Below, in pieces: positions 18,393 to 34,869 of a stretch of DNA of 64,000 nt. Source of the DNA: Gemmatimonadales bacterium. GTDB taxonomy: Bacteria > Gemmatimonadota > Gemmatimonadetes > Longimicrobiales > Gaopeijiaceae. The translations under genes and the position numbers were made by a program. Location of the stretch: positions 1,506 to 65,505 of the forward strand of contig JBJHCE010000003.1 of NCBI GenBank assembly GCA_050485865.1. The letters are read 5' to 3'. A model generated the notes under the pieces. The model saw only the letters and a program-made list of their open reading frames with translations. It was not told where the DNA came from and ran no database searches. How positions within the stretch are numbered: the first letter of the stretch is position 1; each line of letters opens with the position of its first letter.

Positions 18393-18713
18393 TCACCGGA
18401 ACTCCTGGATCACGACCAGGATCAGGATCGCGATCAGGGGAAGGGGGATCGCCGCGAGGATCCACACCCGTCGCTCCTCGAAGCGGAGGTGCATGTAGTA
18501 GAGGGCCACGAGAAGGGCGCTCACGAGGGAGATCGCGACGAGAAGGGTGATGGAAAGCCACTTGGGCATCCCGATGAGGGAGACCCCCACCTTCGCGAAC
18601 ATGAGGACGGCGAGGACCCCCCAGATCATCATGTAGGGTGGAGGGGCGTGCGCCGGGGCCGGGGGGGCTCCCCCCTCCCCTCCTCCCGTGGACGGTTCGG
18701 CGTGCTGCATCAC
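18393..18713 (-). CDS. ctaF: Cytochrome c oxidase subunit IV (prokaryotic COX4-type)
   Basis: About 100 aa with three hydrophobic helices. Its position directly after subunit III and the pattern Y..IW..L..LT..EV-like fit this family. Confidence 0.7.
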   Translation of the reverse strand: MMQHAEPSTGGGEGGAPPAPAHAPPPYMMIWGVLAVLMFAKVGVSLIGMPKWLSITLLVAISLVSALLVALYYMHLRFEERRVWILAAIPLPLIAILILVVIQEFR

Positions 18714-18720
18714 ATCCCCC

Positions 18721-19347
18721 CTAGATCAGGTAGACGATGGTGAAGAGGACGATCCAGACCAGGTCCACGAAGTGCCAGTAGAGACCCATGGCCTCGACGC
18801 CTCCAAGGCGTTTCGAGGTGAAGTCGCCGCGGCGGGCCCTCAGGTAGATCCATACGAGGCAGAGGACCCCGATGGATACGTGGAGCCCGTGGAACCCGGT
18901 CATCAGGTAGAAGGTCGAGCCGTAGAGGGGCCCACCCGCGGCGGCGAAGGCGGCGGCGTTCGGGACGAAGCCGTCGTGGACCAGGTGGATGTACTCGTAG
19001 ACCTGCACGCCCACGAAGAAGCTTCCCAGGAGGATCGTGGCGAGGAGCCACCGCTGGAGCCCCTTCTGGTCGTCGTGCTCGATGGCGGCGAAGGCCTTCA
19101 CCATCGTGACCGAGGAGCAGATCAGGATGAAGGTGTTGAAGGCGGTGAGGGGGACGTTCAGCACCTCGCCGGGGGCGGCGAAGTGGTCCGGGTGGGCAAA
19201 GCGCAGGATGATGTACGCCCCGATCAGCGAGGTGAAGAACATCACCTCCGAGAGGAGGAACACCCACATTCCGAGCTTCGCGTTGTACATGTCGAGGCCC
19301 CGTTCGGGGCGGCGGCCCCCGATCGGGAGGACGGCGGCGTGGCTCAT
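18721..19347 (-). CDS. ctaE: Cytochrome c oxidase subunit III
   Basis: LGMWVFLLSEVMFFTSLIGAY, YLMTGFHGLHVSIGV and YWHFVDLVWIVLF. ATG 19347 overlaps the CoxI stop (ATGA). Confidence 0.9.
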   Translation of the reverse strand: MSHAAVLPIGGRRPERGLDMYNAKLGMWVFLLSEVMFFTSLIGAYIILRFAHPDHFAAPGEVLNVPLTAFNTFILICSSVTMVKAFAAIEHDDQKGLQRWLLATILLGSFFVGVQVYEYIHLVHDGFVPNAAAFAAAGGPLYGSTFYLMTGFHGLHVSIGVLCLVWIYLRARRGDFTSKRLGGVEAMGLYWHFVDLVWIVLFTIVYLI

Positions 19348-21179: not shown

Positions 21180-21913
21180 CGGCCTTCCTCGGCGTCGGGT
21201 TCGGGTGCGGGTTCGGAAGGCGCCTGGGCGCGCTGCCCACGGGCCTCCTCGCGGGCTGCGATCCGCTCCGCCTCCCATGCGGCGAAGTCGGCCTCGGACA
21301 GGGCGATCACCCGGCCGTCCATCCGGAAGTGTCCGACCCCGCAGAGTTCGGCGCACCCGAGGGAGTAGTCGCCCGCTTCGGTGACCTCGAACCAGATCGG
21401 GATCGTCATTCCGGGGACCGCGTCCTGTTTCACCCGGAAGGCGGGAACGAAGAAGGAGTGGATCACGTCGGCCGCGGTGAGGTGCACGACGACGGGGCGG
21501 TTCACCGGCACGTGGACCCGGTTCAGGAGGGTGAAGTCGGCATCGGTCCCGAACACCCCGTCACCTCCGGCGTAGCGCGCCTCCCATTCGAACTGCCGGG
21601 CCTCCACGTGGATCTCGTAGGCCCCGTCGGGAAAGCGGGCCGGGTCCTTCACCTCGTCCCAGACGCTCTTGCTCATGAGGCCGAGGGCCACGACGATCAC
21701 GAAGGGAACCGCGGTCCAGGCGATCTCGGCCTTCGTGCTCCCGTGGATGTAGGCCGCCGGCACCCCCTCGCGTCTCCTGTAGCGGAAGAGGAACCAGAAG
21801 AGGAGAAACTGGGTCAGGAGGAACACGACCCCGGTGATCACGAGGATCAGGTAGTACAGCCGGTCGATGTCGGCGGCGTAGGTGGTCACCGCCGTGGGAA
21901 GGGTCCAGTCCAT
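21176..21913 (-). CDS. ctaC: Cytochrome c oxidase subunit II (CuA; no fused cytochrome c domain)
   Basis: Two N-terminal TM helices. CuA ligands are in DVIHSFFVPAFRVKQD and CAELCGVGHFRM. There is no CxxCH anywhere in the protein. Confidence 0.9.
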   Translation of the reverse strand: MDWTLPTAVTTYAADIDRLYYLILVITGVVFLLTQFLLFWFLFRYRRREGVPAAYIHGSTKAEIAWTAVPFVIVVALGLMSKSVWDEVKDPARFPDGAYEIHVEARQFEWEARYAGGDGVFGTDADFTLLNRVHVPVNRPVVVHLTAADVIHSFFVPAFRVKQDAVPGMTIPIWFEVTEAGDYSLGCAELCGVGHFRMDGRVIALSEADFAAWEAERIAAREEARGQRAQAPSEPAPEPDAEEGR

Positions 21914-21917
21914 CCGG

Positions 21918-22691
21918 TTACGCTCCGGCCCGGAAGGTGAAGGAAACCGAGGCCGTCTCGCCGGTGGTCACCGTGACCCGGGCTTCCTGCGTGCCCAGGT
22001 CCGGGTGCCAGGCTTCGAGGAGGTACTCTCCGGGGGGGAGCCGGGCCAGGTTGAAGGTTCCCGCCTCTCCGGTCACCGCGTGGTAGGGGTGGGGGAGGAT
22101 GCCCAGGTAGGCGCCCATCCACCCGTGAACGTCGCAGCGCAGCGGGATCATCACCTCCGGGAGGGGGAAGGTCCGATCCGTGTCCATGTTGACCGGCTGG
22201 CTCACGTTGAAGCCCCGGTTCGTGCTCGGCGTGGCGTTGATGTTGTGCATGAGTCCGTCGGAGTTCCGGAGCGTCACCGTCTGGTTCGTCATCGCTCCCG
22301 CTACCCGTGGGACGTACCGGCACGCCACCTGGTCGATGAGGACGGCCTCGGCGGGGACGGGGAATTCCATTCCCTCGAGCCCCTCCTTCACGTAGACGAA
22401 GACGTCGGCCAGGTGACCGCCACGGACCTTCACGTTCTCCCGGACGGGGGGTTCGTCGTAGCGCTCGAAGCAGGCGCGCTCGCTCTCCATGTCGATGGGC
22501 TCGGGCGCAGGCGGAGTCCCCTCGAACATGACCATGCCGGAGACCGAACCGGCGGTGGCCACGTCGAAGGGCATCTCGGTGACCTGCCGGGCTGCGGGCG
22601 CGGCGTCGTCCCCGCCTCCGCAGGCGGCGACTCCGAGGGCCAGGGCGAGGGCGGCGAAGGGGAGCGTGCAGCGGTGGGTCAGGGTGTTCAT
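21918..22691 (-). CDS. Cupredoxin-like lipoprotein with C-terminal carboxypeptidase-regulatory-like beta-sandwich
   Basis: Lipobox LALGVAAC. A type-1 copper-like ligand set is present: H in DGLMHNINA plus C-x2-H-x2-M in RCDVHGWM. The C-terminal GTFNLARLPPGEYLLEAW is CarboxypepD_reg-like. Confidence 0.6.
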   Translation of the reverse strand: MNTLTHRCTLPFAALALALGVAACGGGDDAAPAARQVTEMPFDVATAGSVSGMVMFEGTPPAPEPIDMESERACFERYDEPPVRENVKVRGGHLADVFVYVKEGLEGMEFPVPAEAVLIDQVACRYVPRVAGAMTNQTVTLRNSDGLMHNINATPSTNRGFNVSQPVNMDTDRTFPLPEVMIPLRCDVHGWMGAYLGILPHPYHAVTGEAGTFNLARLPPGEYLLEAWHPDLGTQEARVTVTTGETASVSFTFRAGA

Positions 22692-24313
22692 GGGTCCTCC
22701 GGGGTCGGAGTTGGGGTGATGCGTTCACGTCGCTGGGCCCGGGCCACCACGAGGAGGCCGAGCCCGCCGGTGAGAACCATCGCGAGGAGGGGAGCCACGA
22801 AGACCGTGGGCGGGGTCTCGGGCTCCAGGTGGATGAAGAACCAGGAGCTGATGGAGCCCCGGGTCCCGTCCTCCCCGTTGTCACCGTCCCAGGCCTGGAA
22901 GGCGATGGGGATCGAGACCCCCTCCACGAAGGTGAGATCGGCGTCGGGATCCGCGGGCTCGAGGGGGCGACGAAGGAGGAGCTCCCATCGGCCGTCATCC
23001 CAGCGGGCCTCGGCAGAGATCCCGGCGCCGGGAATGTCCTGGACGTCGCGGACCCCCCGGGCCCGGGCCCGGACGGCGGTCCCGGGGCGATCGCTGGACC
23101 ACTGCCAGAGGAGGACCGGACTGCGGGCATCGCCCTTCAGGAAGTACGGCCGGTCCATACCCCGGGGGAGTTCAAGGGGGAGCTGAACGGTGATCCGGTC
23201 CGGCCGGGGGCCGGGCTCCGGGGGTTCGCCGTCGTGGGGCTCCATGACCTCGAGGACCCGGGCCTGGAAGTCTGCCCAGAGCGGGTCCGGGCTCCGGGAC
23301 CGATCGTGCCAGGCCAGGTGGAGAACGAGCTCGGCCCCGTCGTGGAAACCCCGGACCTCCACCGCGTTGATCGAGGGATCGAACCAGCGGGGCGCCACGA
23401 TGATCTGGGCCACGAGGGGAATGTGGAACGCCTCGGCCTCGCCCCATCGCGGATCGTCGAGCCCGGTGGGGAGAGTTCCGCCGTCGAGGCGGGGAATCCG
23501 GATCACCTCCCGGATCCGGGGCTCCCGCTCCGGCGAGAGGCTCCGGACGTAGTGGGCAAGGCTCCAGAGTTCGTCGGCGGTGACCACCCCCGCGTCCACG
23601 AGATCGGCGGACGAGGGCATCGGGGTCCCGTCGAGCCCGGTGAGGATCCGCCGGTGGATGTCCTCCACCGAACCCCCTCCGTCGAACCTCCAGTTCCTGG
23701 TGAGGTCAGCGGCGCGAATCGGATAACCCCAGTCATCTTCCAGGGTGGGCGCACTCGACCCGGCACCCCGCCCGGAGTCACCGTGGCACTGCCAGCACTC
23801 GATTCGCTGGAAGACCTCCCGACCCTCGGCGATCCGCTCGGCACTCGCCCTGGGCGCCCGACCGAAGGGGAGGGGGTCGGGCTGCCCGAAGGTCTCGAAC
23901 CCCGGGTAGAAGGTCTTCAGGTACGCCACGAGGGCGTCCCGGTCCCGGCGGGAGAGGTGACGCTCCCACCCGGGCATGGAGGTCCCGGGCATCCCCTTGT
24001 CGATGACGCGCAGGATGTCTGCGTCGGTGGGAAGCTCCCCCCCGGCGGTGGTCCGGACCTGGTAGACCCCCCGGGTGAAGTCCCTCGGGCGGGGAAGCAT
24101 GGTGCCCGCAGCCGGGCCCAGACCGTCGCCCTCGGCCCCGTGGCACGAGGCACACCATCGGTCGTAGAGCTCCCGCCCCCGGTCCAGGTCCTGGGCCTCG
24201 GCCCCTCCCGCCCCGGCGGCGGCCGCGGCCAGGAACCCCGCGCAGGCCAGGCGGCGGCCGGCGGCCGCAGGGATCCGCCACCTGGAAATGGACCCGCCCC
24301 TCCGCATCTCCAT
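22688..24313 (-). CDS. Di-haem cytochrome c fused to an EB_dh-type (ethylbenzene dehydrogenase gamma-like) haem-b domain, C-terminal TM anchor
   Basis: Two CxxCH motifs (CASCH, CWQCH). The distal domain has LHLAWHD...VQLP...GM..PYF...LWQW...W.LLLRRPL...IAFQAWDGDNGE..G..SISSW. TM VFVAPLLAMVLTGGLGLLVVA. The ATG shares one nucleotide with the upstream stop (TGATG at 24311-24315). Confidence 0.7.
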   Translation of the reverse strand: MEMRRGGSISRWRIPAAAGRRLACAGFLAAAAAGAGGAEAQDLDRGRELYDRWCASCHGAEGDGLGPAAGTMLPRPRDFTRGVYQVRTTAGGELPTDADILRVIDKGMPGTSMPGWERHLSRRDRDALVAYLKTFYPGFETFGQPDPLPFGRAPRASAERIAEGREVFQRIECWQCHGDSGRGAGSSAPTLEDDWGYPIRAADLTRNWRFDGGGSVEDIHRRILTGLDGTPMPSSADLVDAGVVTADELWSLAHYVRSLSPEREPRIREVIRIPRLDGGTLPTGLDDPRWGEAEAFHIPLVAQIIVAPRWFDPSINAVEVRGFHDGAELVLHLAWHDRSRSPDPLWADFQARVLEVMEPHDGEPPEPGPRPDRITVQLPLELPRGMDRPYFLKGDARSPVLLWQWSSDRPGTAVRARARGVRDVQDIPGAGISAEARWDDGRWELLLRRPLEPADPDADLTFVEGVSIPIAFQAWDGDNGEDGTRGSISSWFFIHLEPETPPTVFVAPLLAMVLTGGLGLLVVARAQRRERITPTPTPEDP

Positions 24314-25113
24314 CAGTGCTCCTCCCAGGTACGGGGCGAGAGCCCTGCCTGGCGGTAGAGGAAGAGGGTCACCGCCCAGATCTCGTCGGCGGTCATGAAG
24401 TCCTCCCAGGCGGGCATGGCCGAGTTCCAGGGGGCACCCTCCCGGGGAAGGCCGGCCCCTCCCTTCGCGATCCGCCAGAAGACGTAACTCTCGGTGAGCT
24501 GGGCGATCGTTCCTCCGCCGCGGAGGGGGAGGGGCGCGGGGTTGAAGCCGTGGGCGTAGTGACCCTGCCCGTCCAGGTAGTCGCCGTGGCAGGGCATGCA
24601 GTTCCGCGTGTAGAGGGCGAGCCCCTCGGCGTAGGCCTCGTCCTCCCGCCCCGAGCCGCGTATGGGGTTCTCGAGCCCGTCCAGGCGGATCGTCTCGCCG
24701 CGGAAGGTGATCTGGGTGGGAGGCGCGGGGTGGACGGACCTGAGCCCCGCGGGGGCCGAGACCTTGGGGCGGACCGTGTCGTAGGTCATGAAGCCCACGA
24801 GGAGGGGGAGGGCCACCAGGACCGCGAGGCGCACCCGACGCCGCTCCGGAAGGATCAGGGTCTCCCGGATGGGGCGCTTGAAGGCCTTCCACCGGTCCTC
24901 GTTGTCACTCACCCAGACGAGCACCCCGAGGAGGACGGAAAGCATGTACTGGATCACCACGCTCCGGGGGACCGGTGCGCTCGAAACCCCGACGAGGGGG
25001 GGGAGGTACGGGATCCCCCAGCGGACCAGGGCGTAGGCGAGGAGAAGGACCGCTGCGCCCTGGGCGAAGGGGGTCCGGGGCCAGAGGCGGAAGCGCCGCG
25101 CCGGGGCGTTCAC
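24313..25113 (-). CDS. Membrane-anchored mono-haem cytochrome c (three N-terminal TM helices)
   Basis: Single CMPCH, with the distal Met candidate in NSAMPAW. The GTG start overlaps the upstream stop (GTGA at 25110-25113). Confidence 0.8.
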   Translation of the reverse strand: MNAPARRFRLWPRTPFAQGAAVLLLAYALVRWGIPYLPPLVGVSSAPVPRSVVIQYMLSVLLGVLVWVSDNEDRWKAFKRPIRETLILPERRRVRLAVLVALPLLVGFMTYDTVRPKVSAPAGLRSVHPAPPTQITFRGETIRLDGLENPIRGSGREDEAYAEGLALYTRNCMPCHGDYLDGQGHYAHGFNPAPLPLRGGGTIAQLTESYVFWRIAKGGAGLPREGAPWNSAMPAWEDFMTADEIWAVTLFLYRQAGLSPRTWEEH

Positions 25114-25907
25114 CGGAGCCCCGCCAGGTAGCGCACCACGGCCTCGAGCTGGGCCGCGGTGAGGCGCTCACCGAAGTAGGTGGGCATCACCCCCACGAGC
25201 TCCTCGTACCCCGGGGACACCACGGCCGGGGGGTCGAGGATCGCGCGGCGGAGTTCCTCGGGGGTGCGGCGGGCCCCGATCCCGTCCAGGGCCGGGCCGA
25301 GCGCGGTCCCCTCCCCTGCCAGCACGTGGCACATCACGCACTGCTCCCGTACGAAGGTCTCCGGGTCGTCGGCGCCGGCGATGCCGACGGCTCCGGGCGC
25401 TCCGGCGGCGGGGACGCCGGGGCTCGCATCGGTGTCGGGAATGTCCGCTGCCGTCACGGTGATCTCCCCCCCGAGGCTTTCCAGGTAGGCCACGAGGGCC
25501 CAGATCTGCGCCGGGGCCATGGTCCGGTCGGCAGGGGGCATGATCGGCTCGTACCCCGGGACCATGTGCTCCTGCGGGCGCACAAGCGCCTGGTAGAGGA
25601 ACTCCTTGCACGACATTCCCGGGACCCGGTCGCCGCAGCGGGCCCCGATGGGTCCCTCCCCACGGAAGTCGGTGGAGAGGTTCGGCCCCCGGGCTCCGGG
25701 CGACTCGGCGTGGCAGGCCAGGCATCCGCCGCCCCCCCGGTAGAGGGCGGCCCCGGCTTCGGCCAGCTCCTCCGGGGTCACGTCGGCGCCGAAGGCCACG
25801 TCCAGGGGCACCTCCGACTCCACCTGCGGGATCACGTTCGCCACCAGGGTGAAGAGGATGATGGTCCCGGCCACGACCCCCGCCACCTTGAAATCCACCG
25901 CCGACAT
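25110..25907 (-). CDS. Membrane-anchored di-haem cytochrome c
   Basis: N-terminal TM VAGVVAGTIILFTLVANVI. Two CxxCH motifs (CLACH, CVMCH). The ATG abuts the stop of the CydA-like gene (TGA|ATG). Confidence 0.85.
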   Translation of the reverse strand: MSAVDFKVAGVVAGTIILFTLVANVIPQVESEVPLDVAFGADVTPEELAEAGAALYRGGGGCLACHAESPGARGPNLSTDFRGEGPIGARCGDRVPGMSCKEFLYQALVRPQEHMVPGYEPIMPPADRTMAPAQIWALVAYLESLGGEITVTAADIPDTDASPGVPAAGAPGAVGIAGADDPETFVREQCVMCHVLAGEGTALGPALDGIGARRTPEELRRAILDPPAVVSPGYEELVGVMPTYFGERLTAAQLEAVVRYLAGLR

Positions 25908-27716
25908 TCAGGCCTCCCGGGGGTTCGGATGGAGGGGCGCGGTCGAGGGGGCCGCCGCGGGCTGGGGCTTCACGATCATCCCCCCGATCCAGAAGACGAA
26001 GGAGATCATTCCGAGGAAGATCAGGACGCAGGCGCTGATCACGATGGCCGCGTATCCGAGCGCCGGGGTCGCCGCGTGGGGCGAGGTGTCGCGCATCACC
26101 TCCCAGATGTGCCAGTGCTGGCGAATCCCGCTTCGGGCGAACCCCATGAGCCCCATGAGCCAGGTGAAGGTCACGACCAGCACGAAGAGGGCGTACTGGG
26201 CGCGCTCGGGCATCTCTCCCCAGCGGATCGCCCCCCGGGATTCGGCCTTCCGGGTCAGGAGGAGGTCCAGGACGACCACGGCCACGATGGAGCCCAGCAC
26301 CCAGAGCACCTGGTAGACCGAGAATCCGATCCGGACAATGGCCTCGACGAAGTAGCCGTAGACCCCGTAGAAGAGGACGACGGCAGCACAGATCGCGAGC
26401 ACGATCCCCTGGGCGATCGTCCCCTCCCGGGCCCACGACACGGTGGGAATCTTGTTCGCCCGGCGGTACATCAGGAAGGACAGGAAGGTGGTGAGGATCA
26501 TGAGGTTCACCGCCGTGTTCTTGGCACTCATGACCCCGAGCACCCCCAGGAAGGGGTGGTGCGTCCCCCCCATGGCGGCGAGCTCCTCCCGGTCCGCGAT
26601 CATGGAGTGGGGGGTGGCCCACACGATGAAGCCCACCACGAGGACGGCGAGCATGTACTTCGTGTACGGAGCGAACCGCTCTCCTCCGGGGATGCGACCG
26701 AGGCCGATCCAGAGGTAGTAGTTGCCCGCGAGGAAGAGGATCCCGATCAGGAAGGCCTGCACGATCCAGAGCCAGCTCATGAAGCCGCCCATCATCGTGA
26801 CGCCCATCTGCTGGTTGTACTCGTAGATCTCCCGCCCCAGCCAGTAGCCCGCGAAGGGGAGCACGAGGAAGACCGCGATGGCGATGAGGTTCCCCACGTA
26901 CGCCATCCAGTCGTAGTGGGCGCGCTCCTCCGGGGTCTTCGCCTTGAGGAATCGGTACGCCGCGTAGGCCGCCACCACCGCCCCACCGAACACGGCGTTC
27001 GCGATGAGCCGGTGGATGTTGATGGGCATCCAGGTGGCGTTCGCGAAGGCGCTCCAGAAGAGCACCTCCCGGGGGGAGGTGTCGGGGGTCACGTACCCCG
27101 GGGGGCTCATCATGTAGGTGAGCCAGGAGTTCGCGATGAACATCACGATCGTGCCCCAGATGTTCAGGAGGATCCCGAGCCCCCAGTGTCCGATCTTGGC
27201 CCGACCGGCCTTCCACCGGTCCCACGTGTAGTAGTAGGTGTAGAGGGTGGCCGTCTCGAAGAAGAAGAGACCGGCGTAGAAGTACATGGAGTAGCCGAAG
27301 ATCTCGGCCAGGTATCCCCAGAGCGTGGGGTAGAGGGTCACGAGGAGGAAGAGGAGGAGCCCGCCCCAGAGGGCCGTGGCGCTGTAGGCCACGAGGAGGA
27401 GGCGGGTGAATTCCCGGGCGAGCCGGTCGTACTTCTCGTCCTTCCCCCAGATCGCGATCGCCTCGGCGATCACCGCGAACATCGGCACCCCGAGCACGAA
27501 GGCGGCGAACATGAGGTGCACCTGCGCCGCCACCCACACGGCGATCCGGCTCCCCACCAGGGGAAAGTCCCGCCCGTACTCCGCCACCCGGTACTGGTAC
27601 TGGAAGCCCTGGGCGGCGAGGGGCTCGGCAAGGATCACCACGAGGGCCACCCCGGCGGCGAGGGCCGCGAGCGCCCACGCGATCCGGGCCTTCCCGCCCT
27701 GGCTCCGGCCCGTCAT
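25908..27716 (-). CDS. CydA-like protein (cytochrome bd subunit I superfamily), extended to about 13-14 hydrophobic segments, no CydB partner
   Basis: Aligns to the E. coli CydA N-terminal half: AAQVHLMF (His19 context), FFFETATL (FFLESTF), TWDRW (GWDR), IGHWGL (His126 context), ANSWLTYMMSP (ANGWMQNP) and NIHRLIANAVFGG (His186 context). ATG 27716 overlaps the radical-SAM stop. Confidence 0.8.
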   Translation of the reverse strand: MTGRSQGGKARIAWALAALAAGVALVVILAEPLAAQGFQYQYRVAEYGRDFPLVGSRIAVWVAAQVHLMFAAFVLGVPMFAVIAEAIAIWGKDEKYDRLAREFTRLLLVAYSATALWGGLLLFLLVTLYPTLWGYLAEIFGYSMYFYAGLFFFETATLYTYYYTWDRWKAGRAKIGHWGLGILLNIWGTIVMFIANSWLTYMMSPPGYVTPDTSPREVLFWSAFANATWMPINIHRLIANAVFGGAVVAAYAAYRFLKAKTPEERAHYDWMAYVGNLIAIAVFLVLPFAGYWLGREIYEYNQQMGVTMMGGFMSWLWIVQAFLIGILFLAGNYYLWIGLGRIPGGERFAPYTKYMLAVLVVGFIVWATPHSMIADREELAAMGGTHHPFLGVLGVMSAKNTAVNLMILTTFLSFLMYRRANKIPTVSWAREGTIAQGIVLAICAAVVLFYGVYGYFVEAIVRIGFSVYQVLWVLGSIVAVVVLDLLLTRKAESRGAIRWGEMPERAQYALFVLVVTFTWLMGLMGFARSGIRQHWHIWEVMRDTSPHAATPALGYAAIVISACVLIFLGMISFVFWIGGMIVKPQPAAAPSTAPLHPNPREA

Positions 27717-29053
27717 GCCTTCCCTCCCCGCCCGAGGAAGAAGGGGAGCCGCTTCGAGAAGTCCACCGGCATCTCCTCCCGGACCCGGGCCATCAGCGCC
27801 TCGTCCACGACCGCCACCCCCCGGTCCCGGGCAAAGCGCTCCACCCGGTCCACCACCACCCCCCGGACGAAGCTCGGAATCCGCTCCACCCGGGCCCGGG
27901 CGCCTTCGGTCCAGGGGAGTGCCGGCTCGGGGATCGAGGCCCCGTAGGTGACCGACGCGCGCGGGCGGACAAGGGGCTCGTCCCCGTCCGGCTCGTACGC
28001 GCACGAGAGGTCCGGCCCGAGGAGGTCGCCGGTCTCGGCAAAGGCCCGGGCGCGACACCCCCCGCACACCTCCCGGTACGCGCACCGCCCGCACTTTCCG
28101 CCGGGCGTTCCTTCACGAAGGGCCTGGAACACCGCGGAAGTGCGCCAGATCTCGCCGAAGGAGGCCTCCGCCAGGTCCCCCGCCTCCACCGGGGAGTAGG
28201 GACAGGGCGTCACCTTCCCCTCGGGAGTGATGCGGCAGTACTGGAGCCCGCAGGGACACCGGGTCCGGTAGTTCAGGAGGGGGGAGTCCGGCTCCCCGGC
28301 GTGGGCGAGGCGCATGAGCTGCGGCTGGCACTTCGAGCGAACCAGCATCCGGCCCCGGAAGCGGGCCTCGAGGGCCAGGAGCTCCTCCAGGACCTCCTCG
28401 TTCTCCGCGGGGGAGAGCCCCTGCATCCCCGACCCCCGCCCGGTGGGAACGAGGAAATAGAGGTTGAAGGCCACGGCACCCATTTCGGCGGCCCAGGCCA
28501 CGAGTCCCGGGAGCTCGTCCCGGTTTCCCCGGGTGAGGCTCGTCTGCACGATGAAGTCGAGGCCGTGGCGCCCGAGTCGCTCCACCGCGGCAAGGGTATC
28601 GGAGAGGGCGCCCGAGCCGTGGCGAAAGCGGTCGTGGTACGCGGGGCGGAGCGAGTCCACGCTCACCGCCACGCCCTGCACCCCCGCTTCCATGAGCGAC
28701 CGGATCCGGGTGTCCGTGAGACGCGTTCCGTTCGTACCCACCACCACCGTGGCGCCCCCTTCCGTGGCCCGGGAGGCGAGAAGCTCCAGGTCGTCGCGAA
28801 GGAGGGGCTCCCCGCCGGAGAGGATCAGCATCGGCGCGGGGCTCACCTCCAGGATCTCTCCGAGGATGCGGAGGCATCGGTCCGTCGGGAGCTCGTCGGC
28901 CGCGGCGTGCCAGGACCCGGCCGCGATGTAGCAGTGGGCGCACGCCAGGTTGCAACGCTTCGTCAGGTTCCAGGCCACCACGTGGGGAACGGGCGGGGCA
29001 GGCTCCGACACCGGCGTGGACGGCGCTTCGTCGAGCGCCCGGGCGAGGCTCAC
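27713..29053 (-). CDS. Radical SAM/SPASM enzyme of the NirJ/AhbC/AhbD (tetrapyrrole side-chain) type with a C-terminal PCP_red-like domain
   Basis: CNLACAHCY (CxxxCxxC), SGGEPLL, NLYFLVPTGRG, and a Cys-rich tail CPCGLQYC...PCPY...GKCGRCAYREVCGGCRARA. The C terminus is LPWTEGARARVERIPSFVRGVVVDRVERFARDRG. The GTG start overlaps the upstream stop (GTGA at 29050-29053). Confidence 0.8.
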   Translation of the reverse strand: MSLARALDEAPSTPVSEPAPPVPHVVAWNLTKRCNLACAHCYIAAGSWHAAADELPTDRCLRILGEILEVSPAPMLILSGGEPLLRDDLELLASRATEGGATVVVGTNGTRLTDTRIRSLMEAGVQGVAVSVDSLRPAYHDRFRHGSGALSDTLAAVERLGRHGLDFIVQTSLTRGNRDELPGLVAWAAEMGAVAFNLYFLVPTGRGSGMQGLSPAENEEVLEELLALEARFRGRMLVRSKCQPQLMRLAHAGEPDSPLLNYRTRCPCGLQYCRITPEGKVTPCPYSPVEAGDLAEASFGEIWRTSAVFQALREGTPGGKCGRCAYREVCGGCRARAFAETGDLLGPDLSCAYEPDGDEPLVRPRASVTYGASIPEPALPWTEGARARVERIPSFVRGVVVDRVERFARDRGVAVVDEALMARVREEMPVDFSKRLPFFLGRGGKA

Positions 29054-31035
29054 GCCTCCTCCTCCATGAATCGTTCCACCGCCGCCCTTGCCTCGGCGGG
29101 TGTCGCCGTCTTCATGTCCACCGGGCACTTCTCGACCTGGGCCTCGACATCGCGGATCGGACACCGGGTGACCCCCTGGGCCTTCGCCTCCTCGATGAAT
29201 TTCCTCATCTCGGGCGAGAGCCCGTCCACCCCCTCGGCCGCGGCCTTGAGCTGCTTCGTCTGGAGCTCGCGGAACATGACGAGCATGGTGTCCATGTCGA
29301 ACTCGTCGGCCTCGATCATGGCCTGCTTGTTCTCGTCCATGACCCGGGTCGTGACCCGCCAGAGGTCGTGTTCCTTCGCGAAGCGCTCCACGGTGTTGCG
29401 GGCCAGGGGGCGCGCGATCAGGGGCACGGCCCGAAGGCGTTCGAAGGCTTCCGCGGTCCAGACCACCGGGTCGGTGGCGGTACGCTCCCGGGACTGGCTA
29501 TGCCCCGTGTAGGGGCACGCCACGGTCACCGTGGGGACCTCGGGCTCGGGGTCCGCGTCCACCCCTTCCACCACGGTCCGCCGCATCGCCTCCTCCGCCT
29601 TCACCTCGGCCAGGGCAAGCTCTTCGGCGGTCCCGATCCCCATGATCATCTGCATGTGGGTGGGAAGGAGCTTCCGGATCGCCTCGTCGAGGCGGTCGCC
29701 GGTCACGGTGGGAAGCGCATGTCCCCCGTTCCCGTACTCCTCGAGGACGAACTCCTCCACCGCCTTCCGGGCGATCCCCAGGGCGAAGGGCGGCACCCGG
29801 AGGATCCGCACCTCGGCGTCGGGGGCCCACTCGAGCCCCTGTTCCCCGTCTTCCTCGATCCAGGGGATCTCGTCGGGGCGGACGTCGGTGGTCCCCACGA
29901 GGAGCACGTTCGCAGGCGTGAGGCGGCAGAGGTTCTCGGCCTGGGAACCCAGATCGGTGCCGTCGATCCGGTGCCCCCCGTGCCGCGCCATCACGACGAG
30001 CGAGGGGTCGAGCTCCTCCACCCACTGGAGGATGCACTGGAAGGGCTTCCCGATCAGGATCTGGGTCTCCACCTCCACGTCGGGGAACTCGGAGGCCATG
30101 ACCTGCGCCCGCTTGAGGTTCGCCTGGCAGAGCTTCAGGAGCCCCTTGTCGATGATGTTGTTGTGAAGGGCTTCCTGCTCCTCGAACTTGAAGACCTTCG
30201 CGGCCTGCGCCGAGAGCACGTCCTTGATGTTGCCGAAGACGACGTGGTGATACTCCACGTCGAAGGCGGAGCAGACGTGGAGCTTCGCCCCGAACTCCCG
30301 GGCGAGTTCGAGGGCCACCCGCATCGCCTTGTACGCGTAGGAGGAGCCGTCCACGCATACGATCCAGGATCCGCCCTCGAGCGGTCGGTCGTTCCGGACG
30401 ATCAGGGTGTCCCGTTCGACCTTCCGGATGACCCGGGCGGTGACGCCCCCGAGCTGTGAGAGGGGCTGGAGGCCGATTCCGTGGGCGCCGATGCAGAGGA
30501 GGTCGTATTCACGACCGCTCTCGCCCGCGAGCTTCTCGTCCTGCTCCTCGTCCTCGGCCACGATCCGTCCGTCCGCCCCGAGGCGAACGTCGCTCCGGAC
30601 CGTCGTACCCCCGTCGTACTTGTCGGCGATGTTGGGATCGAAGCCGATGAGACTGGGAAGGCGCCCCGCTCCCCGGTTCGCCTCACGGATGATCTCCTCG
30701 TAGTTGATTCCCTCGAGGAGCTGCCGTGCAAGGGGGACTCCGGCCTCCCGGCACCGCCGTTCCGTCTGGTCCAGGAAGGAGTCCGAGATGAGCTGGAGCC
30801 CCTTCTCGATCAGCTTGTCGTGGACCTTCCGCTGCCGCCGGATCTCTTCCGGGGTCTGGAACTGTGCAGGGAGACCGGTTTCGAGCTGCCGGAACCGGAC
30901 GTCGTGAAGCCGGGCGGCGTAGACGTGGTTTCCGGTGATCCGGCCGTCGGACCTGCGGCAGAGCTCCACCGCACGGTTCACGGCCCAGCTGGAATGGTCG
31001 GAGTTGTCGACCGGAACGAGGACTTCGCGGTACAT
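29050..31035 (-). CDS. Tandem universal-stress-protein (USP) domains fused to two PCP_red-like domains
   Basis: USP-1 is MYREVLVPVDNSDHS...LLCIGAHG...VIRKVERDTLIV. USP-2 is WIVCVDGSSYAYKA...VVMARHGGH...GSQAENLCRLTPANVLLV. These are followed by EWAPDAEVRILRVPPFALGIARKAVEEFVLEE and VVWTAEAFERLRAVPLIARPLARNTVERFAKEHD. A GAGG Shine-Dalgarno precedes ATG 31035. Confidence 0.8.
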   Translation of the reverse strand: MYREVLVPVDNSDHSSWAVNRAVELCRRSDGRITGNHVYAARLHDVRFRQLETGLPAQFQTPEEIRRQRKVHDKLIEKGLQLISDSFLDQTERRCREAGVPLARQLLEGINYEEIIREANRGAGRLPSLIGFDPNIADKYDGGTTVRSDVRLGADGRIVAEDEEQDEKLAGESGREYDLLCIGAHGIGLQPLSQLGGVTARVIRKVERDTLIVRNDRPLEGGSWIVCVDGSSYAYKAMRVALELAREFGAKLHVCSAFDVEYHHVVFGNIKDVLSAQAAKVFKFEEQEALHNNIIDKGLLKLCQANLKRAQVMASEFPDVEVETQILIGKPFQCILQWVEELDPSLVVMARHGGHRIDGTDLGSQAENLCRLTPANVLLVGTTDVRPDEIPWIEEDGEQGLEWAPDAEVRILRVPPFALGIARKAVEEFVLEEYGNGGHALPTVTGDRLDEAIRKLLPTHMQMIMGIGTAEELALAEVKAEEAMRRTVVEGVDADPEPEVPTVTVACPYTGHSQSRERTATDPVVWTAEAFERLRAVPLIARPLARNTVERFAKEHDLWRVTTRVMDENKQAMIEADEFDMDTMLVMFRELQTKQLKAAAEGVDGLSPEMRKFIEEAKAQGVTRCPIRDVEAQVEKCPVDMKTATPAEARAAVERFMEEEA

Positions 31036-31418
31036 CGGCACCTCGGGCCTTGAGCCTGAGCACCCCCGCAACCGGCCCCAGGGCGGGCAGGGGCCCAGGA
31101 TCTGGGCCATACCCGTCCTCAGGAGCCCCGGGACAAGCCCGGGGACCCACGCTCCGCCCTCGGCGGAGCACGGACGCTGCGACCGGCACGAAGGGGACGG
31201 GACGTTCCCGCCCACTCACGCTCAAACCGGGCATCCACGCGTTGTGCTCGCTTCTGCCCGACGACCGCCTCCCTCCGGGAGGGGGCGGACCGTGACCGAG
31301 GTTTGCTGTTGTCGCTTCGGGAGGGGGCCCTGTCTGCAGGTCGTGCGAGGCACATCGTGCCGGGACCCGCGGGCTGCACCCGTCCCCGGGGACCGTCCCC
31401 GGGGTGTGCGACGACGCC

Positions 31419-31448
31419 AACATAGAGGACCCTTTCCGGGGATGTCAA
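31419..31448 (-). promoter_or_regulatory. Sigma-70-like promoter candidate TTGACA-N18-TATGTT
   Basis: Minus-strand TTGACA (31448-31443), an 18-nt spacer and TATGTT (31424-31419), inside a locally AT-enriched patch. It would give a ~375-nt leader before the USP gene start at 31035. Confidence 0.4.
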
Positions 31449-31479
31449 CGGAAATGTTCTTTTCCGCTCCATGCGCGGT

Positions 31480-32223
31480 TCATCCGCGGAGTCCCGCGAC
31501 CCGTCCCACGAGCCCTCGAGCCGCCAGGAGGGAGATCCCCGCCAGGAGCAGGGTGGAGAGTGCGGGGCCGAACCAGTGGACGAGGGCCGCCGCCCCTGGA
31601 ACGGTCCCGGTGGCGCCTGGCGGCCCGCTCGCCACCCGGAGGAGCTCCCGATGAAGGGGGCCGAAGGGAAGGAGCGCCTCGAACCGGGCTCCCCAGCCCC
31701 CGGCCTGCGCCGTGCGGAACACGCCGGACCCGTGGAGGAGGAAGAGGGTGGCCACCGCGGCGAAGAGGGCGCCCTCCGCCATGGACCGCGCGGCGGAGGC
31801 GACCCACAGTCCCACGAGGTTCGCCGCCGCGAGGGCAAGGGCGAGGGTCGCGGCAAGGACCAGGAAGTCGCGGGCTCCGCCACCCGACAGGGCCACGATC
31901 AGGATCACCGATGGCGAGAGCTGGACCAGGTCCACCCCCACCTGGGCCGCGGTCCGCTCGACCACGAACCGGCCCGGCGGAAGCCCGGTCATGACGACCC
32001 TGCCCAGGAAGCCCGATTCAGCATCCCGGAGCACCGGGATCGCGGAACCCATGGTTCCGAAGAGGACGAAGAGCACGGCGTAGACCGCTGCCGCGTGGAA
32101 CGCAGGTGCCGCACCGAGCGCCAGCGGAACCACGAGAAGAAGGGGCACGCCGACGTTCAGGGCGAAGAGGCGCTTCCGCCGAAGCGAAAGGCGCCACTCG
32201 AGCCGTGCCAGGGCGCCCCTCAC
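31480..32223 (-). CDS. ABC-2-type transporter permease
   Basis: About 6 hydrophobic helices. The GTG start overlaps the ATPase stop (GTGA at 32220-32223). Confidence 0.65.
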   Translation of the reverse strand: MRGALARLEWRLSLRRKRLFALNVGVPLLLVVPLALGAAPAFHAAAVYAVLFVLFGTMGSAIPVLRDAESGFLGRVVMTGLPPGRFVVERTAAQVGVDLVQLSPSVILIVALSGGGARDFLVLAATLALALAAANLVGLWVASAARSMAEGALFAAVATLFLLHGSGVFRTAQAGGWGARFEALLPFGPLHRELLRVASGPPGATGTVPGAAALVHWFGPALSTLLLAGISLLAARGLVGRVAGLRG

Positions 32224-33230
32224 GGTGCCCCTCCCCCCGCCCCGTGCCCGTCCTCCGTCGGATCCGGCGACCCACGGCCCGGCACCGGTCCGGTGACCCC
32301 GGTCATATCCTCCAGGACCGCCTCCAGCCCTGCCTCCCGGACCCGGACCTCGGCCACGGCGACCCCGGACTCGAGCAGCCGTGCCAGGAGTCCCGGGAGG
32401 ACGGTCTCGAGGGGAACGCCGCCGGGGTCGGTCCGGAACTCCAGGGATCCGTCGGCTCGCCTTTTCTCGAGGGTGACCCCGGGAAGGTCGATTCCGCGCT
32501 CCCACCCCGGCTCCTCCACCCCCTCGGCAAGGGTCACGAAGACCCGGGTGCGACCGTGCATCCTCTCGAGGAGTCCCGAAGGCGGTGCGTCCGCCAGGAC
32601 CCGCCCCCGGTGCAGGACCACGACCCGGTCGAACCCCGGTGCCAGTCGAGCCAGGTCATGCGTCGCCACCACGATCGCCGTCCCCGCCCCGGCTTCCTCC
32701 CGCGCCGCTTCCTCCAGGGCCGTCACCCCCGAGTGGTCGAGCCCTACCGTGGGCTCGTCCAGCACCAGGAGGCCCGCCGCGCTCCCGAAGGCCTCGGCAA
32801 GGACGAGGCGCCGCCGCATTCCGGAGGAGTACGACTCCACCGACCGGTCCGCCACATCGGACAGCCCGAAGGCGTCGATCCAGCGTTCGACGTGCCCCGG
32901 ACCTCTCCCCCGGAACGCCTGGAAGGCCCCGAGGTGCTCCCGCCCCGTGAGGGCGCCTGCGAAGACCGGTACGTCGGGAGCCATGGCGATCCGGCGGCGC
33001 AGCGCCGGGAGCTCGGAGCCTCGCGGCGGCCTGGACGCCCCGAACCACCGGATCTCCCCGCCCGTGGGCGAGAGCGCGGTGGCAAGAAGGCGGAGGAGGG
33101 TCGACTTCCCGGCGCCATTCACCCCGACCACGGCCACCCGTTCTCCCGCCGCCACCCCCAGATCGATCCCCTCCACCCCGGCCTCCCCCCCGGGCCACCG
33201 CAGCGCAAGGTCTCGGGCCTGGACGACCAC
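32220..33230 (-). CDS. ABC transporter ATP-binding protein (ABC-2/DrrA-like with C-terminal extension)
   Basis: Walker A GVNGAGKST, signature YSSGMRRRL, Walker B LLVLDEPTVGLD and H-loop ATHD. The GTG start abuts the upstream TAG stop. Confidence 0.9.
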   Translation of the reverse strand: MVVQARDLALRWPGGEAGVEGIDLGVAAGERVAVVGVNGAGKSTLLRLLATALSPTGGEIRWFGASRPPRGSELPALRRRIAMAPDVPVFAGALTGREHLGAFQAFRGRGPGHVERWIDAFGLSDVADRSVESYSSGMRRRLVLAEAFGSAAGLLVLDEPTVGLDHSGVTALEEAAREEAGAGTAIVVATHDLARLAPGFDRVVVLHRGRVLADAPPSGLLERMHGRTRVFVTLAEGVEEPGWERGIDLPGVTLEKRRADGSLEFRTDPGGVPLETVLPGLLARLLESGVAVAEVRVREAGLEAVLEDMTGVTGPVPGRGSPDPTEDGHGAGGGAP

Positions 33231-33677
33231 CTACATGCCTTCCAGGCCCAGGTCGGTCCGGGCCCGATCCATGACCTCCGGCGAGATCGTCCCGATCCCA
33301 TGCTCCCGGGCGTAGTCGGTGTAGATCCGCTTCACCATTCCGCGAACGAACCCCGGCACCCCCTGGAGGCGGAGCACCGCCTCCTCCGTCCAGATCACCG
33401 GGATCGGCGTCGTCGGAGCCGACGTGTCGACGAAGGCATCACTCCGCCCGCCATCGAGGGAGCCGCGCACCGTTTCGAAGGGCTGGGCAGGGACCTCCCT
33501 CCCGCCGACCTTCACCCCCATGGTGCTCACGAGCTGGGTCTCCATCGGGTTCGTGAGCAGCGCCATTTCCCTTGCACACCCGGGGCACCGGAAGAGGGTG
33601 GCCATCGTCCCGTCGCCGGGGAGGCGCCGCTCGGCGTAGGCCATGACCTGGTCGCAGGGGATGCAGAGGAATTTCAT
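33231..33677 (-). CDS. Zn-ribbon + PCP_red-like domain protein
   Basis: N-terminal CIPC...CPGC ribbon. The C-terminal domain is VIWTEEAVLRLQGVPGFVRGMVKRIYTDYAREHG. The ATG overlaps the Mrp stop (ATGA at 33674-33677). Confidence 0.7.
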   Translation of the reverse strand: MKFLCIPCDQVMAYAERRLPGDGTMATLFRCPGCAREMALLTNPMETQLVSTMGVKVGGREVPAQPFETVRGSLDGGRSDAFVDTSAPTTPIPVIWTEEAVLRLQGVPGFVRGMVKRIYTDYAREHGIGTISPEVMDRARTDLGLEGM

Positions 33678-34609
33678 GGTCCCTTCTCCTCGCCACCCGG
33701 CGCCGGGGGCGAGGCACCGACTCCAGGGTCCGTTCCTCCGTCGCCGGCCGCCCCCAGCGCGGCCAGGAGCTTCGCTGCAAGGCCCTCGAAGCGGGTCGAG
33801 TCCGGAGCCCCTGCATCGGTGCTGGAGCCGGCACCGGGGTCCAGGGGAATGGATGCCCAGAGGGGGAGGCCGTAGCGAAGGCGAAGGCCTTCTCCCCCTT
33901 CGCCGGGGAAGAGGGCGTGGATCTCCCCGCATCCGGGACAGCGGAACCCGTCCATGTTCGACACGAGTCCCGTGATCGGGACGCCCGCCTCGACCACGAG
34001 CCGGAGCGAGCGGGCCACGACCGCCTCGGAGAGCGTCCCCGGCGTCGTCACCACCACCGCGGCGTGAAGCCCGGGAACGAGCTCAAGGAGCCTTGCGATC
34101 TTGTCCGTTCCGGGCGGAACGTCCACGAGCAGCAGGTCCAGCTCGCCCCACGCCACGTCCCCCAGGAACTCACGGAGGGCCGAGGTCTCGACCGTGCTCT
34201 GCCACAGGTGCCCATGGCCCCCGGGTCCCCGCCAGCGAAGGGGAGCATCGTCCCCTCCCTGGAGAAGCTCCATCGAGATGACCCGGACCCCGGATGCGCC
34301 CGTGGCGGGCTCGATCCCGCCCGAGCCCTCCCCGAGCCTCGCCTCCCGTACCCCGAGCATCCGCGCCATGGAAGGGCCGTTCAGGTCCGCATCCACCACC
34401 CCCACCCGCTTCCCCGCCCCGCCAAGCGCCGACGCGAGTCCCGCGGTCACGAAGCTTTTCCCGACCCCCCCCTTCCCACTCACGATGGCCACGATCGCCC
34501 CGACCCGGGCGAGCCGGCCGGCCAGGCGGGCGTGCTGGTCCAGCACCTGCTCGAGGAGCCCGGAGCCGGTCTCGTGCTCCACCTCGTTGTACGTCCGGAA
34601 CGGGCGCAT
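33674..34609 (-). CDS. Mrp/NBP35/ApbC-family Fe-S cluster carrier ATPase
   Basis: Deviant Walker A SGKGGVGKS, DADLNGPS, and the CPGC cluster-bridging motif (FRCPGCGEIH). Confidence 0.9.
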   Translation of the reverse strand: MRPFRTYNEVEHETGSGLLEQVLDQHARLAGRLARVGAIVAIVSGKGGVGKSFVTAGLASALGGAGKRVGVVDADLNGPSMARMLGVREARLGEGSGGIEPATGASGVRVISMELLQGGDDAPLRWRGPGGHGHLWQSTVETSALREFLGDVAWGELDLLLVDVPPGTDKIARLLELVPGLHAAVVVTTPGTLSEAVVARSLRLVVEAGVPITGLVSNMDGFRCPGCGEIHALFPGEGGEGLRLRYGLPLWASIPLDPGAGSSTDAGAPDSTRFEGLAAKLLAALGAAGDGGTDPGVGASPPAPGGEEKGP

Positions 34610-34623
34610 CCGGAACCCCCGGG

Positions 34624-34869
34624 TCAGGGTGCGAGGAGACGGCCTTCGCCGTCGTGCAGGGTGATGGCGTCGACCGGGCAACTCCGGCACACCCGAACGA
34701 GGGCGTCGCGATCCAGCGCTCCGATCCCATCCCGGAAGACCGCGATCCCGTCGGCGTCGAGGGCAAAGGCCCCGGGCGCCGCATCGAGGCAGTCTCCGAA
34801 CCCGACGCAGATCTGCCGATCGATCCGGGCAACGAGGGCCCCGATCCTGCGCTCCTCGATTCCTTCCAC
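34624..34869 (-). CDS. Small ferredoxin (single cluster, probably 3Fe-4S type)
   Basis: 81 aa. CVGFGDC (C-x2-F-x2-C, middle ligand missing) and a distal CP (CRSCPVDAI), resembling the Fer4_13/15 family. Confidence 0.75.
   Translation of the reverse strand: MEGIEERRIGALVARIDRQICVGFGDCLDAAPGAFALDADGIAVFRDGIGALDRDALVRVCRSCPVDAITLHDGEGRLLAP

Follow-up and report, generated by a model that had tools for sequence, protein, structure and literature searches.

The PCP_red domain (PF08369) has been described in the BchB/ChlB subunit of dark-operative protochlorophyllide oxidoreductase (DPOR), and stand-alone structures of it (2KRU and 2L09) have a small helical fold. In DPOR, the helix that contacts protochlorophyllide in trans comprises BchB residues 398-420 (PMC12022308), while PF08369 aligns to BchB residues ~473-520. 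An earlier note on the DNA analysed here had remarked that the domain has no established function outside BchB/ChlB, and a literature search on PCP_red and PF08369 agreed with this, giving no relevant paper beyond DPOR. The window, the whole 64-kb stretch of contig JBJHCE010000003.1 from a Gemmatimonadales bacterium, was found to encode exactly four PCP_red domains, in three minus-strand genes for a tandem universal stress protein (USP), a radical S-adenosylmethionine (rSAM) enzyme and a small Zn-ribbon protein. The three genes are part of one long array, all on the minus strand, that also encodes a cytochrome bd-like membrane complex.

The bd-like enzymes of the OR-N type are, to our knowledge, widely found among bacteria that oxidise nitrite, manganese, iron or sulfur, as well as in Gemmatimonadota, and we know of none that has been characterised, nor of any account of their cofactors or assembly. 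Murali et al. (2021, bioRxiv 10.1101/2021.01.16.426971) describe the OR-N2 operon as a cydA homologue together with an EbdC-like subunit and several cytochromes c, and the cydA-like, cytochrome c and EbdC-like genes of the window have the same make-up. The text and available supplements of that preprint make no mention of rSAM, USP or PCP_red genes. In the window, the accessory genes appear to be translationally coupled to cydA. The closest described relatives of the rSAM enzyme are AhbD and NirJ/NirJ2, with which it shares the CX3CX2C motif and a SPASM domain, and which were the best-scoring families for every orthologue scanned.

Four PCP_red domains in three genes of one array

The four copies are listed below, with the score of each segment alone against PF08369, for which the Pfam gathering cut-off is 32.5 bits.

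27785-27913, minus strand: C-terminal copy of the rSAM enzyme, 46.2 bits
29299-29466, minus strand: copy b of the USP protein, 40.7 bits
29668-29835, minus strand: copy a of the USP protein, 23.9 bits (E 4.5e-5, model positions 1-30 of 45), under the cut-off
33258-33392, minus strand: copy of the Zn-ribbon protein, 53.8 bits

The earlier note had proposed four PCP_red-like segments in three proteins, and all four of the peptides that it quoted were recovered and were homologous at the profile level. Three copies exceeded the cut-off on their own and USP copy a fell below it, although its match was still significant. When whole proteins were scored, all three exceeded the cut-off (50.9 bits for the USP protein); over both scans, the Zn-ribbon protein gave 51.5-53.8 bits. 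The copies also aligned with one another better than shuffled controls, all six pairwise Smith-Waterman scores beating 2000 of 2000 shuffles (z 7.7-17). A hidden Markov model (HMM) built from the four segments and run against the six-frame translation of the 64 kb returned the same four copies only, with no other match better than E = 0.19. The pattern in which the repeat had been written down fared differently, since none of the four copies matched it literally, a spacer having been miscounted and the residue classes drawn too narrowly, and it matched nowhere else in the six frames. It is thus profile-level comparison, and not that pattern, that supports the repeat. The copies cover 27785-33392, or ~5.6 kb where 5 kb had been claimed, and the span originally assigned to them (29050-33677) takes in the USP and Zn-ribbon copies but not that of the rSAM enzyme.

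The window copies resemble the PCP_red domain of BchB/ChlB in both sequence family (40.7-53.8 bits for three copies) and small helical fold. The C-terminal domain of the Zn-ribbon protein, as modelled by AlphaFold2 (AF2; pLDDT ~90), was matched by Foldseek to 2KRU with a root-mean-square deviation of 1.6 Å and to ChlB (2YNM_D) with one of 1.4 Å at 38% identity; the fold assignment is for this copy, the one of the four modelled at high confidence. However, the window proteins lack the nitrogenase-like BchB body. Pfam found no Oxidored_nitro domain in any of the three PCP_red proteins, and the NCBIfam BchB models (including TIGR01278, with an equivalog cut-off of 490) gave 34-39 bits against cut-offs of ~490-509, with only the last 60-75 model positions matching. 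A further PCP_red-bearing gene such as BchB was likewise absent from the window in the six-frame search with the four-segment HMM. Instead, the proteins that bear PCP_red here are a USP, an rSAM enzyme and a Zn-ribbon protein, and relatives have the domain in arrays with as many as five copies. A fifth copy in the tail of the USP protein (residues ~600-661), which a large alignment placed under the last repeat of distant homologues, was considered and rejected; Pfam and our own HMM found nothing there and the pairwise scores equalled those of shuffles.

The genes of the array, in the direction of transcription, are as follows.

34624-34869, minus strand: small ferredoxin with a single cluster, at the head of the array (PF13459/PF13370)
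33674-34609, minus strand: Mrp/NBP35-type Fe-S carrier P-loop ATPase (PF10609, 207.9 bits; CPGC motif)
33231-33677, minus strand: Zn-ribbon-PCP_red protein, 148 aa (PF08369; cysteines C5, C8, C31 and C34)
32220-33230, minus strand: ABC transporter ATPase, optional insert (PF00005)
31480-32223, minus strand: ABC-2 permease, optional insert (PF01061; start inferred, an in-frame GTG at the ATPase stop)
29050-31035, minus strand: tandem-USP protein with two PCP_red copies, 661 aa (PF00582, 114 bits; PF08369, 50.9 bits; Cys-Pro-rich tail at 29053-29238)
27713-29053, minus strand: rSAM-SPASM-PCP_red enzyme of the AhbD/NirJ2 clade, GTG start (PF04055, PF13186, PF08369)
25908-27716, minus strand: cydA-like membrane subunit, OR-N2 type (PF01654, 81.3 bits)
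25110-25907, minus strand: c-type cytochrome (PF00034, PF13442)
24313-25113, minus strand: c-type cytochrome (PF13442)
22688-24313, minus strand: cytochrome c with an EbdC-like heme b (EB_dh) domain (PF09459, 59.4 bits; PF13442)
21918-22691, minus strand: CarboxypepD_reg-domain protein (PF13620)
18393-21913, minus strand: aa3-type (A-type) heme-copper oxidase genes COX2, COX1 and COX4_pro, directly downstream (PF00116, PF00115, PF03626)

Stop and start codons overlap between the Mrp and Zn-ribbon-PCP_red genes (ATGA), the USP and rSAM genes (GTGA) and the rSAM and cydA-like genes (ATGA), and the stop codon of the Zn-ribbon-PCP_red gene abuts the start of the ABC ATPase gene. Judged by this same-strand array with overlapping or abutting codons, the three PCP_red genes are putatively co-transcribed. 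The Mrp/NBP35 protein has both the ParA/NUBPL P-loop domain and the CxxC motif (CPGC) of its class. The OR-N2 type was assigned by gene content, namely PF01654 at 81.3 bits together with two cytochrome c genes and the cytochrome c-EB_dh gene. The cydA-like protein matched the Cyt_bd_oxida_I protein of a gammaproteobacterial locus (L083, below) with a phmmer E of 1e-172, and the cytochrome c-EB_dh protein scored 79.7 bits, below the cut-off, on TIGR03477 (dimethyl sulfoxide reductase type II gamma subunit). The USP gene is preceded by ~445 bp in which no gene was called (31036-31479). Related loci have gaps of much the same length, and the segment is probably an internal promoter region. A precursor peptide or RNA element at this position was rejected, the sequence being unconserved across 27 loci but for one 49-bp match to locus L020; Rfam gave no match anywhere in the 64-kb window.

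The N-terminal 390 residues of the USP protein were predicted by AF2 to adopt the tandem-USP fold (Foldseek matches to Rv2623, E 3e-15, and TTHA0350, E 4e-14), while its PCP_red units were modelled with lower confidence. Of the nucleotide motif G-x2-G-x9-G-[ST] of ATP-binding USPs, USP domain 1 has G183-x2-G186-x9-G196-G and USP domain 2 has G-x9-G-S, the first glycine being replaced in the window protein. The protein is thus like the tandem USPs Rv2623, TTHA0350 and UspE in its fold, with a G-x2-G-x9-G motif in domain 1, but differs from them by its C-terminal PCP_red repeats and Cys-Pro motifs and by long helical insertions with invariant histidines (H37, H44, H72, H263 and H291). We know of no ordinary USP with such insertions. 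They span residues 37-90 and 259-310 and bear the repeated motifs H-x-Y-A-A-x-L-H-D-x-R-F and F-K-F-x-E-Q-E-x-L-H, of which the His, Asp and Arg were invariant in all phyla sampled. The three Cys-Pro motifs, CPYTGH, RCPIRD and KCPVD (residues 507, 625 and 637; window positions 29512-29520 and 29053-29238), hold the sole cysteines outside the USP domains and were invariant in 18 Gemmatimonadota orthologues; since these are highly identical overall, the invariance carries less weight. The window has another gene with a USP domain (40808-43045), unrelated to the first, which encodes an amino-acid permease fused to a C-terminal USP domain.

In 39 orthologues of the Zn-ribbon-PCP_red protein, the four cysteines, the sequence VPxFVRGMVKRIY and the C-terminal LGLEGM were essentially invariant, while the linker varied in length; the invariant ends and variable linker suggest a pair of specific binding surfaces with a tether between them. 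In the databases, the small protein is named "PCP reductase family protein" (NCBI) and the large one "universal stress protein".

The G+C content of the window is ~72%, and proteins nearly identical to those of the window are assigned to Gemmatimonadota in the databases. Since high G+C gives long stop-free open reading frames (ORFs) in several frames and on both strands, an ORF list alone is misleading, one example being a 990-aa stop-free ORF on the plus strand at 24975-27947; real genes were separated by a G+C content at third codon positions (GC3) above 0.85. Elsewhere in the window, at 13674-16800, three adjacent minus-strand genes have as their products a chalcone synthase-like type III polyketide synthase, a methyltransferase and an FAD monooxygenase. 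These genes resemble a small cluster for a secondary metabolite or an alkylresorcinol-type product, and have no apparent link to the PCP_red genes.

Conservation in Gemmatimonadota and occurrence beyond the phylum

Relatives of the USP protein were sought in the GTDB species genomes, which gave at least 594 loci, and the best 80 were kept. The 77 loci L003-L079 were almost all labelled Gemmatimonadota, two having other phylum labels, and the last three were from Chloroflexi/Anaerolineales. Genes were counted in Gemmatimonadota-type loci with enough flanking DNA ("eligible" loci), so that the denominators differ. The gene order was retained in ~95% of the eligible Gemmatimonadota loci. The Zn-ribbon-PCP_red gene was present in 66 of 67, the rSAM gene in 63 of 65, the cydA-like gene in 55 of 56 and the cytochrome c-EB_dh gene in 49 of 50; Mrp was found in 62 of 64, as was the ferredoxin (62 of 64), which lay near the USP gene and mostly upstream of it. 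The ABC transporter occurred in only 13 of 58 loci with the order otherwise fixed, so the ABC-2 exporter (31480-33230) was taken to be an optional insert.

The median identity to the window proteins was 73% for both USP-PCP_red and the cydA-like subunit, and lower for the rSAM enzyme (63%), the Zn-ribbon protein (59%) and Mrp (46%). With the same median of 73%, the USP-PCP_red protein equals the catalytic membrane subunit in constraint, as would be expected of a core component more than of a regulator at the periphery. Consequently, the "sensor-like" label that had been attached to this protein is doubtful.

Beyond the phylum, the USP-PCP_red family comprised 249 clusters at 50% identity (E < 1e-30), with named sources that include Nitrospinota, Nitrospiria, Manganitrophaceae, Mariprofundaceae, Ca. 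Endoriftia and Sedimenticola. Among the last, the culturable Sedimenticola hydrogenitrophicus encodes the USP-PCP_red protein according to its NCBI annotation. A sample of the distant family was made up of 38 sequences, the window USP protein and 37 members at 28-44% identity to it. PF08369 was matched in 36 of these, with 1-5 repeats each, and rubredoxin-like Cys4 domains were added in nine. In the Nitrospirota and Nitrospinota members, rubredoxin-like Cys4 knuckles immediately precede a PCP_red repeat, a layout that mirrors the separate Zn-ribbon-PCP_red protein of the window. Homology between the Zn ribbon and the Nitrospirota inserts was rejected, as phmmer found none, and the arrangement is analogous only. 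The Cys-Pro motifs and the Nitrospirota linker Cys4 knuckles are leads for putative metal or heme binding, not evidence of it.

Gene neighbourhoods showed that the module recurs in at least five lineages besides Gemmatimonadota. A USP-(PCP_red)n gene and an rSAM-SPASM-PCP_red gene, with or without a gene for a PCP_red-only protein, were found in these loci:

Chloroflexi (L080): cytochrome c, cytochrome c, cytochrome c-EB_dh, CarboxypepD_reg, COX2, COX1, COX3, COX4 and DUF420, continuing with an AhpC/TSA-family redoxin, USP-PCP_red x3, hydrolase, Mrp, Zn-ribbon-PCP_red and rSAM-SPASM-PCP_red
Gammaproteobacteria (L083, L087 and L090): in one arm Cyt_bd_oxida_I, cytochrome c and cytochrome c-EB_dh; in the divergent arm HEAT protein, CarboxypepD_reg, USP-PCP_red, long rSAM-PCP_red and an Amino_oxidase-family flavoprotein
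Unclassified metagenome-assembled genome (MAG; L089): two cytochrome c-EB_dh, Cyt_bd_oxida_I, several cytochromes c, rSAM-PCP_red, a 313-aa PCP_red protein, USP-PCP_red and HEAT protein
Nitrospirota (L084 and L088): USP-PCP_red, rSAM-PCP_red and PCP_red x4
Mariprofundaceae-like MAG (L085, positions 1-22214): the PCP_red trio amid molybdenum-cofactor and molybdate-transport genes

What stays constant is thus a core of USP-(PCP_red)n with rSAM-PCP_red, usually accompanied by a PCP_red-only protein; this core lies often, not always, beside an OR-N2 complex. Genes for Cyt_bd_oxida_I and cytochrome c-EB_dh adjoin the module in the three gammaproteobacterial loci and in L089, and those for cytochrome c and cytochrome c-EB_dh adjoin it in the Chloroflexi locus, whose Zn-ribbon-PCP_red protein is a clear orthologue of that in the window. 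The neighbours in L085 were MoaA, MoaC, MoaD, MoaE, MobB, ModABC, TOBE, cupredoxins and a Rieske_3-molybdopterin oxidoreductase, and the module of this locus has a molybdate ABC transporter within it, flanked by the USP and rSAM genes. A CarboxypepD_reg protein of ~250 aa accompanies the module in most loci examined (homologues in L001, L080, L083, L085, L087 and L090), and a CpcE/NblB-like HEAT-repeat protein does likewise in Proteobacteria and L089. Each of these two proteins may be an additional subunit or an assembly factor. By analogy with BchL, Mrp might have been the docking partner of PCP_red in all lineages; this idea was weakened, since Mrp was nearby only in Gemmatimonadota and Chloroflexi and not in loci L083-L085 and L087-L090.

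The radical SAM enzyme and the possible role of PCP_red

The rSAM enzyme of the window has the CX3CX2C motif (CNLACAHC), an rSAM domain (PF04055, 84 bits) and a SPASM domain (PF13186, 37 bits). It scored 273.5 bits on TIGR04055 (NirJ2) and 272.7 bits on TIGR04545 (AhbD), both below the 500-bit equivalog cut-off, and 169 bits on TIGR04051, the NirJ heme d1 model, which has an equivalog cut-off of 515. The AhbD model gave 300-326 bits with the orthologues from other phyla, also under 500. In five orthologues from five lineages, the top NCBIfam matches were NirJ2 and AhbD in every case (273-359 bits), while the peptide maturase models gave 123-150 bits (MftC) and 102-142 bits (PqqE). The enzyme differs from AhbD and NirJ in its extra C-terminal PCP_red domain, of which there are four in Gammaproteobacteria, and in the constant pairing of its gene with one for USP-PCP_red. 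Among the annotated genes of the loci examined, none belonged to the siroheme pathway (AhbA-C); AhbD itself occurs in some organisms without the remainder of the alternative heme biosynthesis (AHB) pathway (PMC13564367). As the most economical solution, we infer a tetrapyrrole substrate for the rSAM enzyme.

The gammaproteobacterial loci bear on both the substrate and the partner. There the rSAM protein is 676-718 aa long and consists of an rSAM/SPASM core followed by a PCP_red-repeat part. The C-terminal 325 aa of the 676-aa protein are a full-length homologue of the stand-alone protein with four PCP_red repeats in L085 (39% identity, E 4e-70). The rSAM enzyme and the PCP_red-repeat protein thus form a fusion/fission pair, being encoded by separate genes elsewhere and as one polypeptide in Gammaproteobacteria. 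Directly after the rSAM gene, Pfam identified a gene for an Amino_oxidase/HemY-like flavoprotein (14264-15673 in L083, 14515-15930 in L087 and 14402-15871 in L090). The L083 copy, confirmed with NCBIfam as well, scored 227 bits on TIGR00562 (protoporphyrinogen/coproporphyrinogen oxidase; cut-off 97.85). Gammaproteobacteria usually use other protoporphyrinogen oxidases, which makes the pairing of a HemY-type gene with an rSAM gene unusual.

The reading that we prefer, tentatively and at a little under an even chance, is that PCP_red is the shared docking or hand-off module of an rSAM-centred, probably tetrapyrrole-tailoring and delivery set that serves the adjacent OR-N2 complex. The rSAM enzyme would carry out oxygen-independent side-chain chemistry on an iron tetrapyrrole, either the conversion of coproheme to heme b, as in AhbD, or some further tailoring. 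Electrons would be supplied by the ferredoxin, and perhaps also by the Cys4 ribbon, while Mrp would load the [4Fe-4S] clusters of the rSAM enzyme. The PCP_red domains on the rSAM, tandem-USP and Zn-ribbon proteins would dock these proteins together, so that the substrate or product could move from one to the next without being released and so reach the heme-rich membrane complex, with the putatively nucleotide-binding USP pair gating the hand-off. The earlier note had suggested a shared docking or tetrapyrrole-handling role. Synteny, the overlapping codons and the gammaproteobacterial fusion argue for a shared role, and the NirJ2/AhbD matches and the HemY-type gene make a link to tetrapyrroles plausible; PCP_red itself as the binder is the part that found no support.

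Several observations weigh against the preferred reading, 1) because its scores are about half the AhbD and NirJ2 equivalog cut-offs, the rSAM enzyme is best regarded as belonging to a sister family of the heme-modifying rSAMs, with a substrate that is predicted only, 2) SPASM enzymes more often act on peptides or proteins, 3) tetrapyrrole binding by PCP_red is unsupported, since the pigment-contacting helix of DPOR is another segment, 4) linkage to a cydA-like gene is not universal across the lineages, none being found within 10 kb in the Nitrospirota loci L084 and L088 and none being detectable within 10 kb in L085, 5) the molybdenum context of L085 does not fit a heme function, 6) in Nitrospinota (L086) the USP-PCP_red gene stands by itself, and 7) Mrp and ferredoxin together accompany the module only in Gemmatimonadota, Mrp also in Chloroflexi.

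A more far-reaching form of the preferred reading is that the rSAM enzyme, together with the HemY-type oxidase in Gammaproteobacteria, makes a non-canonical heme oxygen-independently, or a private heme b pool, specific to the OR-N2 complexes. PCP_red would then be an unrecognised tetrapyrrole hand-off or carrier domain, its role in BchB being one special case. We consider this proposal unlikely.

It is also improbable, although several features would suit it, that PCP_red is itself a small tetrapyrrole carrier whose repeats go beyond docking and keep heme or one of its precursors bound, in the manner of a buffer or chaperone. Arrays of 1-5 repeats would suit a multi-site carrier, the Arg/Lys-rich domain (FVRGMVKR) could pair with propionates, and the NirJ2/AhbD-like rSAM enzyme and HemY-type neighbour provide a tetrapyrrole context. 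The repeats are flanked by the invariant Cys-Pro motifs in Gemmatimonadota, and a CPF[AG][NH] motif is found in the inter-repeat linker of many proteobacterial USP homologues; these Cys-Pro motifs resemble heme-regulatory motifs, in which a conserved CP dipeptide binds heme. However, the alignments showed no conserved Cys or His within the PCP_red core, the helix of BchB that contacts the pigment is a different segment, and the entry descriptions of 2KRU and 2L09, as far as available, give no sign of a ligand.

We think it similarly doubtful that the rSAM/SPASM enzyme acts as a maturase on proteins or peptides, cross-linking for example a respiratory subunit or the PCP_red-repeat protein, with PCP_red as a recognition or partner domain comparable to PqqD. 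The SPASM domain would be in keeping with such an activity, and small unannotated ORFs lie near the module in the gammaproteobacterial loci. The nearest solved structures by sequence were PqqE and SkfB, with no AhbD or NirJ structure among the PDB matches, so that this comparison provides no ranking. The fusion and fission of the rSAM enzyme and its partner parallel PqqE-PqqD and MftC-MftB, which are likewise fused in some lineages and separate in others, but the partner here is a PCP_red array in which Pfam found only PCP_red and not a PqqD-type domain. Moreover, the NirJ2 and AhbD models outscored MftC and PqqE with all five orthologues (ranges above), neither a conserved small ORF nor a precursor peptide was found upstream of the USP gene in Gemmatimonadota, and the gene next after rSAM in Gammaproteobacteria is of the HemY type.

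Least probable, and very unlikely in our estimate, is that the tandem-USP protein senses nucleotides and regulates the products of the respiratory operon under low oxygen or energy stress, with PCP_red as a tether and no biosynthetic role for the cluster. In favour of this account, the protein has the same fold as Rv2623 and TTHA0350, tandem USPs that bind ATP, and in Nitrospira marina low oxygen induces USP genes that lie beside respiratory operons (PMC8115632). However, it leaves the coupled AhbD/NirJ-like rSAM enzyme, Mrp, ferredoxin and HemY-type gene unexplained, and conservation equal to that of the catalytic subunit and the invariant His and Asp of the USP insertions across phyla point beyond a generic sensor.

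Significance for the OR-N enzymes and the PCP_red family

The literature search found no paper that describes the module, nor one that combines "bd-like" and "radical SAM". A conserved, coupled rSAM enzyme of the heme type with its partner proteins would provide a handle on the cofactors and assembly of the OR-N enzymes. PCP_red would gain its first functional context outside chlorophyll synthesis, and the tandem-USP/PCP_red-repeat family, with its 249 clusters, would gain a testable role.

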